From Eledone cirrhosa (taxonomy: Eukaryota), in assembly GCA_964016885.1 (NCBI GenBank), contig OZ024744.1, positions 98,518,001-98,582,000 on the forward strand: DNA of 64,000 bases. The letters run 5' to 3'. A program made the position numbers and the translations under genes. The stretch's first letter is position 1, and every line of letters begins with the position of its first letter. Positions 57,980-58,951 of the stretch are shown in pieces. The notes below the pieces were generated by a model. It searched no databases and was not told the origin of the DNA. It saw nothing but the letters and a program-made list of their open reading frames with translations.

Positions 57980-58951
57980 AAATGAGACGTATAGAGATTG
58001 TTTTAGCAAGAAGCTAACGGCATTCTATAACATATATGCGACTATAACGTCAAAATGGGAAAAGTAGTTAACGAAAGATTTAGGAAAAATAACTCAAACT
58101 CATCTCAAAAGAGAATCAGGATACAGATTCATCCACAGAATTTAGTAAAATCCATGGAAAAATCTATAGACCCTTAACTCATGATAAAACAAAGTTTGAA
58201 ACACTTATCCTTCAATTTGGAATAACATCAAATGCTCTGTATAGTCTTAAAAGACTATTTCATGAAAACTTTCAGTGGAGATGGTCACGGTTGGAATATC
58301 ATTCATCAGCAGAGCTCAACAGAAAACCAGGGCTCTCACAGTAATATAGTCCGAAAAAGGGAATTCTAAAACTGGCTAGTTCGCCTTCATGTGTATTTAT
58401 GAAAAAGCACATGAGGAAAAAACGGGGCTAGTGACGTCAGGATGGAAGTGAATGTTTATTTACAAGAAATAGCAGTCAAATACATTCTGAAAAAAAAACT
58501 CTACAAGGAGTTCAGCAAAATAGCAATAATTATCACAGTTTTTATGAAAAAAACCGGGATTAGTCACAGATAGTTTAAGCACTCTAGGAAAAGAATCCGA
58601 GTATAAATATAAATAAGACGTATAGAGATTGTTTTAGCAAGAAGCTAACGGCATTCTATAACATATATGCGACTATAACGTCAAGATGGGAAAAGTAGTT
58701 AACGAAAGATTTAGGAAAAATAACTCAAACTCATCTCAAAAGAGAATCAGGATACAAATTCATCCACAGAATTTAGTAAAATCCATGGAAAAATCTATAG
58801 ACCCTTAACTCATGATAAAACAAAGTTTGAAACACTTATCCTTCAATGTATATACGTAGATATGTATATACGTAGATATATACGTATAGTCGCATATATG
58901 TTATAGAATGCCGTTAGCTTCTTGCTAAAACAATCTCTATACGTCTCATTT
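57980..58951 (-). mobile_element. non-coding HHR element: 631 bp period partial tandem plus 67 bp terminal inverted arms
   Basis: direct repeats 57980-58216 / 58611-58847; inverted arms 57980-58046 / 58885-58951; both ends in (TA)n. Confidence 0.8.
58234..58315 (-). ncRNA. type I hammerhead ribozyme with full stem III
   Basis: GCTCTG CTGATGA ATGA..TCAT GAAA TAGTCT TTTA AGACTA TA CAGAGC. Confidence 0.85.

Follow-up and report, generated by a model that had tools for sequence, protein, structure and literature searches.

Animal retrozymes of the non-LTR type are described as low-GC, non-coding tandem repeats with one type I hammerhead per unit, dispersed as monomers to multimers in genomes that also contain Penelope-like elements (PLEs) (accessible parts of PMC7229834 and of the preprint 10.64898/2026.07.22.740005). 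In the animals that PMC7229834 tested in 2020, their units measure ~170-400 nt; the preprint gives 51-972 nt, and stem III of the hammerhead is usually 1-2 bp (PMC4209133, in its accessible part). Both the retrozyme class and its proposed link to PLEs are already known, and circular templates have been proposed earlier (PMC4209133 and PMC7229834, same parts). Among PLEs, Hydra-clade elements target (TA)n, carry a hammerhead, and are found as 5'-truncated copies and partial tandems with an occasional inverted 5' copy, which is a known PLE feature (extracts of PMC8557442). One PLE, Poseidon PAc of the anole, has been tested in vitro. According to the accessible portion of PMC11167929, PAc starts internally, downstream of its hammerhead and at a stem-loop, uses two start sites which define its tail, and primes at a site without homology to the target; both strands are cut and extended by its enzyme, uncut RNA is the main substrate in vitro, and hammerhead mutants did not lower insertion. 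Elements of the Chlamys MRC1 type are non-autonomous PLE dependants arranged head to tail in microsatellites, which share 3' sequence with their partners and are generally without hammerheads (PMC8557442, same extracts). The choice of start site by PLEs, their tails, their inverted copies, and the enzyme that moves retrozymes are open questions in these papers.

In this study, we analysed a stretch of 64,000 nt (the window) and found that the element at 57980-58951, embedded in (TA)n, is, judging by its sequence, a member of a non-LTR retrozyme family with a unit of ~630 nt. Like the animal retrozymes described above, the family consists of non-coding head-to-tail tandem units without LTR architecture, dispersed across the genome. 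Its 630-nt unit is longer than those of the animals tested in 2020 and falls within the range of the preprint, and its stem III has 7 bp as compared to the usual 1-2 bp. It is further set apart from animal retrozymes by its 33-nt loop II, which is conserved, by a single end that could be mapped, and by a candidate signal that it shares with a named clade; the family is described here at the level of sequence and covariation. With Hydra-clade PLEs it has the (TA)n target, the hammerhead, the 5' truncation, the partial tandems and the occasional inverted copy in common; unlike them, it has no ORF, its tail and inverted copies are rare, its second boundary hairpin is decayed, and it shows no homology to the families examined. 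The internal start at a stem-loop downstream of the hammerhead is like that of PAc, whose cutting and extension of both strands would yield an inverted arm, whereas the retrozyme has one site and a TA-like stretch there instead of two sites and priming without homology. Like the MRC1 type, it would be a non-autonomous PLE dependant. Our main reading, to which we assign a probability of roughly 0.7, is that 57980-58951 is a 5'-truncated tandem copy of a non-LTR retrozyme, placed into a TA repeat by a Hydra-clade reverse transcriptase/endonuclease, probably from circular RNA, and that its inverted arm came from a rare second copying.

The RNA sense of the element is the minus strand, and the repeat listing of the window places its (TA)n target at 57854-57979 on the left and 58952-59931 on the right. 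A full 631-nt unit (57980-58610, minus strand) starts at the fixed 3' end of the family (57980), where reverse transcription would begin, and is followed by a second lap (58611-58847, minus strand) which is 5'-truncated at unit position 237 and lacks the hammerhead. The original prediction of about 1.4 copies of a 631-bp monomer is borne out, since 57980-58216 recurs at 58611-58847 with a spacing of 631, giving 1.38 units in total; the two laps differ at 3 of 237 nt. Letters 58054 and 58126 of the first unit are of the older-subfamily type and the second lap differs there; such sites seem to toggle between subfamilies. The nearest sampled relative of this copy is L002. The duplicated 16-bp filler predicted at the inversion junction is present as well: the 37 nt at 58848-58884 hold the 16-mer in 2.1 copies and resemble the arm end plus TA, a type of scar also seen at non-inverted copies. 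Next to it lies the inverted copy of unit positions 1-67 (58885-58951, plus strand), of the same subfamily as the main body. As predicted for inverted arms in (TA)n, it is complementary to 57980-58046 at 67/67 positions with (TA)n beside both.

Six-frame translation of the unit yielded no ORF; its GC content is 34%, and it folds more stably than its shuffles (z -5.3). A predicted 3'-terminal hairpin at 57987-58033 (minus strand) is kept in 7 subfamily majority lines, and the base of this hairpin is followed by a TA-like stretch at which many copies stop, leaving solo pieces of 57-58 nt. The two CGGG..TAGT motifs and the TGACGTCA site that had been noticed before are located at 58417-58432, 58548-58564 and 58432-58439, respectively, and 18 of 3000 shuffles contain such a site. 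The block formed by the first motif and the TGACGTCA palindrome (58417-58439) is present in 6/7 subfamily lines and is a candidate promoter element. The second motif overlaps a middle hairpin at 58536-58556 (minus strand); one of the two motifs is in part an arm of a conserved RNA hairpin. A sigma-70 promoter scan of the element was set aside as inapplicable to an animal.

A type I hammerhead motif occupies 58234-58315 (minus strand), and its cleavage site is predicted to fall between 58240 and 58239, at unit position 260. It has a 6-bp stem I, a 4-bp stem II with a 33-nt loop, a 6-bp stem III plus the core A-U pair, and an AUA triplet. Its description as the best-formed hammerhead in the window holds, in that it has the most pairs among 4 candidates of a motif scan, and none of 3000 dinucleotide shuffles of the element contained even a looser hammerhead motif. 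The Rfam search gave no hammerhead match at the element, only microsatellite noise. Conservation of the ribozyme, whose lack was to speak for a MITE, is seen as changes on both sides of three pairs, one in stem I and two in stem II, among 79 distinct rows, in which core position 7 is T, G or C and the length of loop III is variable. Because these rows were chosen by motifs in stem I, core and loop II, and related rows count one change repeatedly, the conservation totals are inflated. Independently of this selection, among 7 subfamily lines, variable positions amount to 16/82 inside the hammerhead versus 170/549 outside (p 0.037), and the 33-nt loop II is nearly constant across subfamilies (hammerhead stretch 58279-58298, minus strand). 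Four bases of loop II could pair with the strand that precedes stem I; a loop II pseudoknot was not retained, no compensatory change being found.

The proposal that this hammerhead folds as a monomer stands only in part. Although stems I and III do form, the prediction for this copy disfavours the catalytic fold, which lies 1.9 kcal/mol above a register-shifted fold and makes up ~1% of the ensemble in a model without tertiary contacts. Across nine examples its predicted share ranges from 0.2 to 70%, with values up to 70% in other subfamilies. Likewise, the interior is a 631-nt unit with a hammerhead as proposed, but it holds one hammerhead only, and a 631-nt circle could come only from other copies, because the second lap ends at 237 and does not reach the cleavage site at 260. 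The preprint counts as active those copies with at least two consecutive hammerhead units, and the 57980-58951 copy with its one hammerhead falls outside; it would release no monomer and be a dead end.

The family was surveyed in 3.0 Gb of genome by exact sequence patterns with control patterns. The end of the youngest subfamily gave 258 matches, the 5' side of its hammerhead 567, the loop II pattern 1,813, and the family end followed by TA 5,245 (a few of them internal junctions), with 0 control matches in each case. Five differently biased locus searches were merged into 174 insertions, 173 of which are not cut by a locus edge. The insertions end at unit position 1-4, the RNA 3' side, in 162/173 cases, and 159 of these 162 lie in TA repeats; the remaining 11 are diverged copies aligning late, fragments, or, in three cases, copies with extra sequence past the end. 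The far (5') ends are scattered, with small piles at the TA-like internal spots 58, 421 and 631, and insertion lengths range from 44 to 3,631 nt. There are arrays of at least five units in which the ~630-nt units follow one another head to tail with a period of 629-635 nt, and the subfamilies are up to 18% apart. At L258-L262, an older subfamily forms an array with ten or more units.

A census by the end 31-mer alone, covering the first 100 of the 258 matches, yielded 67 young insertions, of which 20 are no longer than 265 nt, 19 reach up to one unit and 28 exceed one unit; two or more hammerheads are present in 13, and 1 is inverted. The 5' ends seem clustered at unit positions 335-360 (just past the hammerhead) and 420-451 (a strong internal hairpin), with hand counts of about 9 and 10 of 67 which are marginal given the many windows. 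Forty further end loci were chosen for a missing loop II match; solo pieces of 55-61 nt are present in 19 of them, and none of the 40 is joined to an ORF. The idea that the excess of ends over hammerheads reflects a hidden partner was rejected, these 40 loci being short pieces. A second start at unit position 58 was also rejected, since no copy begins there; early stops account better for the 57-nt pieces. The family is present in four contig runs of one study, which has no bearing on expression.

A bulged ACTC..GAGT(A/G)C hairpin stands 9 nt beyond the fixed end of the unit. Its loop and bulge vary among 1,115 matches, the stems being fixed by the search pattern; a looser pattern gave 23,049 genome matches versus 136 for the control. 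In the window copy the intact hairpin, ACTC-GGA-loop-TCC-TA-GAGT-GC, stands at 58579-58602 (minus strand), 9 nt past the unit end, and is a candidate start signal common to the retrozyme and Hydra-clade elements. A decayed second ACTC..GAGT hairpin follows 91 nt after the first (58498-58511, minus strand), with its inner stem shortened and the GC behind GAGT missing; the middle hairpin lies between the two. The boundary hairpin and its spacing are shared with Hydra-clade families of the same genome. Two hairpin-bearing families with ORFs, represented by L304 (808 aa) and L306, have the motifs DKT, RxRW and CxCX5C; their proteins resemble the published Hydra alignment by eye, and the clade is assigned from the motifs. 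The Hydra-type ORFs received no Pfam score. At the end of the published Hydra-2_Amil sequence, a similarly shaped hairpin can be made out by eye.

In the L304/L306-type families the hairpin stands at unit boundaries, inner ends fall mostly 5-9 nt before it and outer ends ~80 nt after it, and a second hairpin of the same shape is present at +90/+91, ~10 nt past the outer end. When 30 hairpin loci were scored by rule, 21 had the outer end at +74 to +92, 7 were scored early at a TA-like run inside the tail, and 2 were tandem junctions; because these loci were selected by hairpin, the balance of inner and outer ends among them does not give a rate. For one Hydra-type family, the inner ends number at least 5,465 (forward-strand count). 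All 7 subfamily lines of the retrozyme have a decayed second hairpin at +89 to +93, and a genome-wide end pattern for the outer site gave 3 matches (control 1), two of them true ends at +80 and +81 and one a chimeric junction. The retrozyme thus resembles a natural knockout at the spacing of the autonomous families, with 5,245 ends at the intact hairpin versus 2 at the decayed one. This suggests that the intact hairpin tells the copying enzyme where to start, as a correlation in one family, not as a cause. A wider proposal, which we hold tentatively and at slightly less than even odds, is that the NCTC..GAGYGC hairpin is the start signal of the Hydra clade, one per start, that the tail is the spacer between hairpins, and that the retrozyme is a circular RNA parasite in which one of the hairpins has decayed. 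Under this proposal, the keeping of one hairpin and the decay of the other would account for one end, no tail and few inverted copies; if true, the hairpin would act as a portable RNA signal that directs reverse transcription into TA targets and over several laps.

The unit showed no nucleotide homology to the four PLE families examined, including those of L304 and L306, and for this reason the identity of the partner rests on hairpin geometry. Two families were rejected as partner because they share neither sequence nor hairpin with the unit, i.e., the 1,238-aa family of L218/L231 and the family of the window element at 51266-53989, which we take to be Neptune-like. At L231-L242 there is an abundant Penelope-like family whose ORFs reach 1,407 aa; it has a DKS motif, a hammerhead and a ~60-nt tail but no NCTC hairpin.

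In the scenario that we favour, arrays with at least two hammerheads would be transcribed and cut themselves to 630-nt monomers, which would then be ligated. The enzyme would bind the intact hairpin and start 9 nt upstream, where the RNA also matches the TA target at 8 of 9 bases. Reverse transcription would pass the cleavage site and lap the unit, and its product would be captured at TA-like internal spots or via templated filler. The outer start, the source of the Hydra tail, would almost never be used, the second hairpin being decayed. Two primings at the same site, from both cut strands, could have produced 868 and 67 nt joined via filler, so that the inverted arm probably stems from a second priming at that site. 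Extension of both strands is known from the anole enzyme (PMC11167929), and inverted 5' copies occur in PLEs (PMC8557442). A filler test showed that 13 of 159 junctions repeat their own end sequence as compared to a null mean of 4.0 and a maximum of 12 in 500 runs, a modest excess.

Several other explanations have to be weighed against this scenario. The perfect 67-bp arms within TA are what a MITE with terminal inverted repeats, a TA target and a DNA transposase would show, but the arm-length comparison put forward with the original prediction went against it: arms are missing in 171/173 sampled insertions and very unlike in the other two, namely this copy and L049, whose arms are 331 nt and over two units; a third two-armed piece (L337), outside the 173, is very short. 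Ends are fixed on one side only and length is not uniform (44 to 3,631 nt). The fixed 3' end, ragged 5' ends and tandem laps form the pattern of target-primed reverse transcription, not that of a MITE. We regard the latter as having practically no chance; that the element is a retrozyme-type retro-insertion is supported, and the MITE reading is refuted. It is also conceivable that the arm inserted independently, as a short piece landing back to back with an ordinary copy within one TA repeat. Such solo pieces are frequent (55-61 nt at 19/40 loci), family members do share TA tracts (L077, L355 and L075), and a solo piece at L077 likewise stops at 67; however, arm and body both belong to the youngest subfamily, whose end has 258 matches as compared to 5,245 family ends, and they are joined by filler without a pure TA run. 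This improbable alternative alters the origin of the arm only. Less probable still, to the point of being very unlikely, is that the unit is the end repeat of an as yet unfound autonomous Penelope-like element. Hydra elements in this genome do leave many truncated ends with the same hairpin, and the four examined PLE families are only part of those in the genome, but head-to-tail junctions recur every 629-635 nt where at least five units form an array, and none of ~210 fetched insertions runs into a PLE ORF on its own strand.

The alternative with most weight keeps the same family and enzyme and replaces the circle with uncut read-through of tandem arrays, long arrays arising by local duplication. 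From the cleavage site downstream to the fixed end there are 260 nt, and 5' ends within 256-266 number 3/160, with ~2.8 expected if they were even. Since 5' ends show no accumulation at the point of cleavage, the cut linear monomer is not the main template, and the template is either a circle or an uncut multimer. All three units of L023 carry a change at core position 15.1, which presumably stops cleavage. Periodic variants of 2 and 3 units occur in arrays L108 and L114, and together with the L023 change they indicate that some arrays were locally duplicated or made from uncut RNA. The predicted misfolding of the hammerhead and the preference of the anole element for unprocessed RNA in vitro (PMC11167929, accessible portion) fit uncut read-through as well. 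On the other hand, compensatory hammerhead changes across subfamilies up to 18% apart are hard to explain without cutting in the line of descent, and the laps of L120 share ~20 changes from the family type. Distances in older arrays, 1.1% within insertions versus 2.2% between them, also speak for a circle. Against it, within-array and between-array distances are equal in the youngest subfamily (0.5%), and locus-private variants are unshared in 75 cases and shared in 19. RNA-editing scars were sought as an A-to-G excess on the sense strand and none was found (9/162 A sites versus 25/257 for T-to-C). Taken together, uncut read-through as a full account is unlikely, albeit the least so of the alternatives, and a circular RNA template seems somewhat better than an even bet.

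No paper on this retrozyme family or on a hairpin start signal was found in a search of the openly accessible literature. What is new here is the single-start contrast between an intact and a decayed hairpin. Our analysis also singles out one enzyme clade as a candidate, with ORFs that are near-intact in this very genome, together with a 630-nt substrate, which makes the signal and circle models directly testable, and it illustrates how retrozyme insertions can pass for MITEs.

The window holds further mobile elements. No canonical hammerhead lies within ~1.1 kb downstream of the ORF at 51266-53989 among the matches listed; this element (minus strand) is a frameshifted Penelope-like element with reverse transcriptase, linker zinc finger and GIY-YIG, and its family is young, with many 775-aa open frames at 98-99%. 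Hydra-type fragments are seen at 39882-40628 (plus strand), with a CxCX5C linker, and at ~44500-45613 (minus strand), with 35-41% identity to the L304/L306 proteins. Besides the retrozyme hammerhead there are three more hammerhead-like motifs at 15180 (plus strand), 27515 (minus strand) and 49029 (minus strand), and the one at 15180 resembles the end of the second Hydra-type family, stopping in TA ahead of the hairpin. The stretch 31474-33658 consists of about four tandem units of 510 nt, which contain subrepeats of 98 nt and 25 nt. Finally, several young LINE copies with endonuclease and reverse transcriptase, which we assume to be RTE-like, are found at 33999-36524, 45701-47980 and in other pieces.
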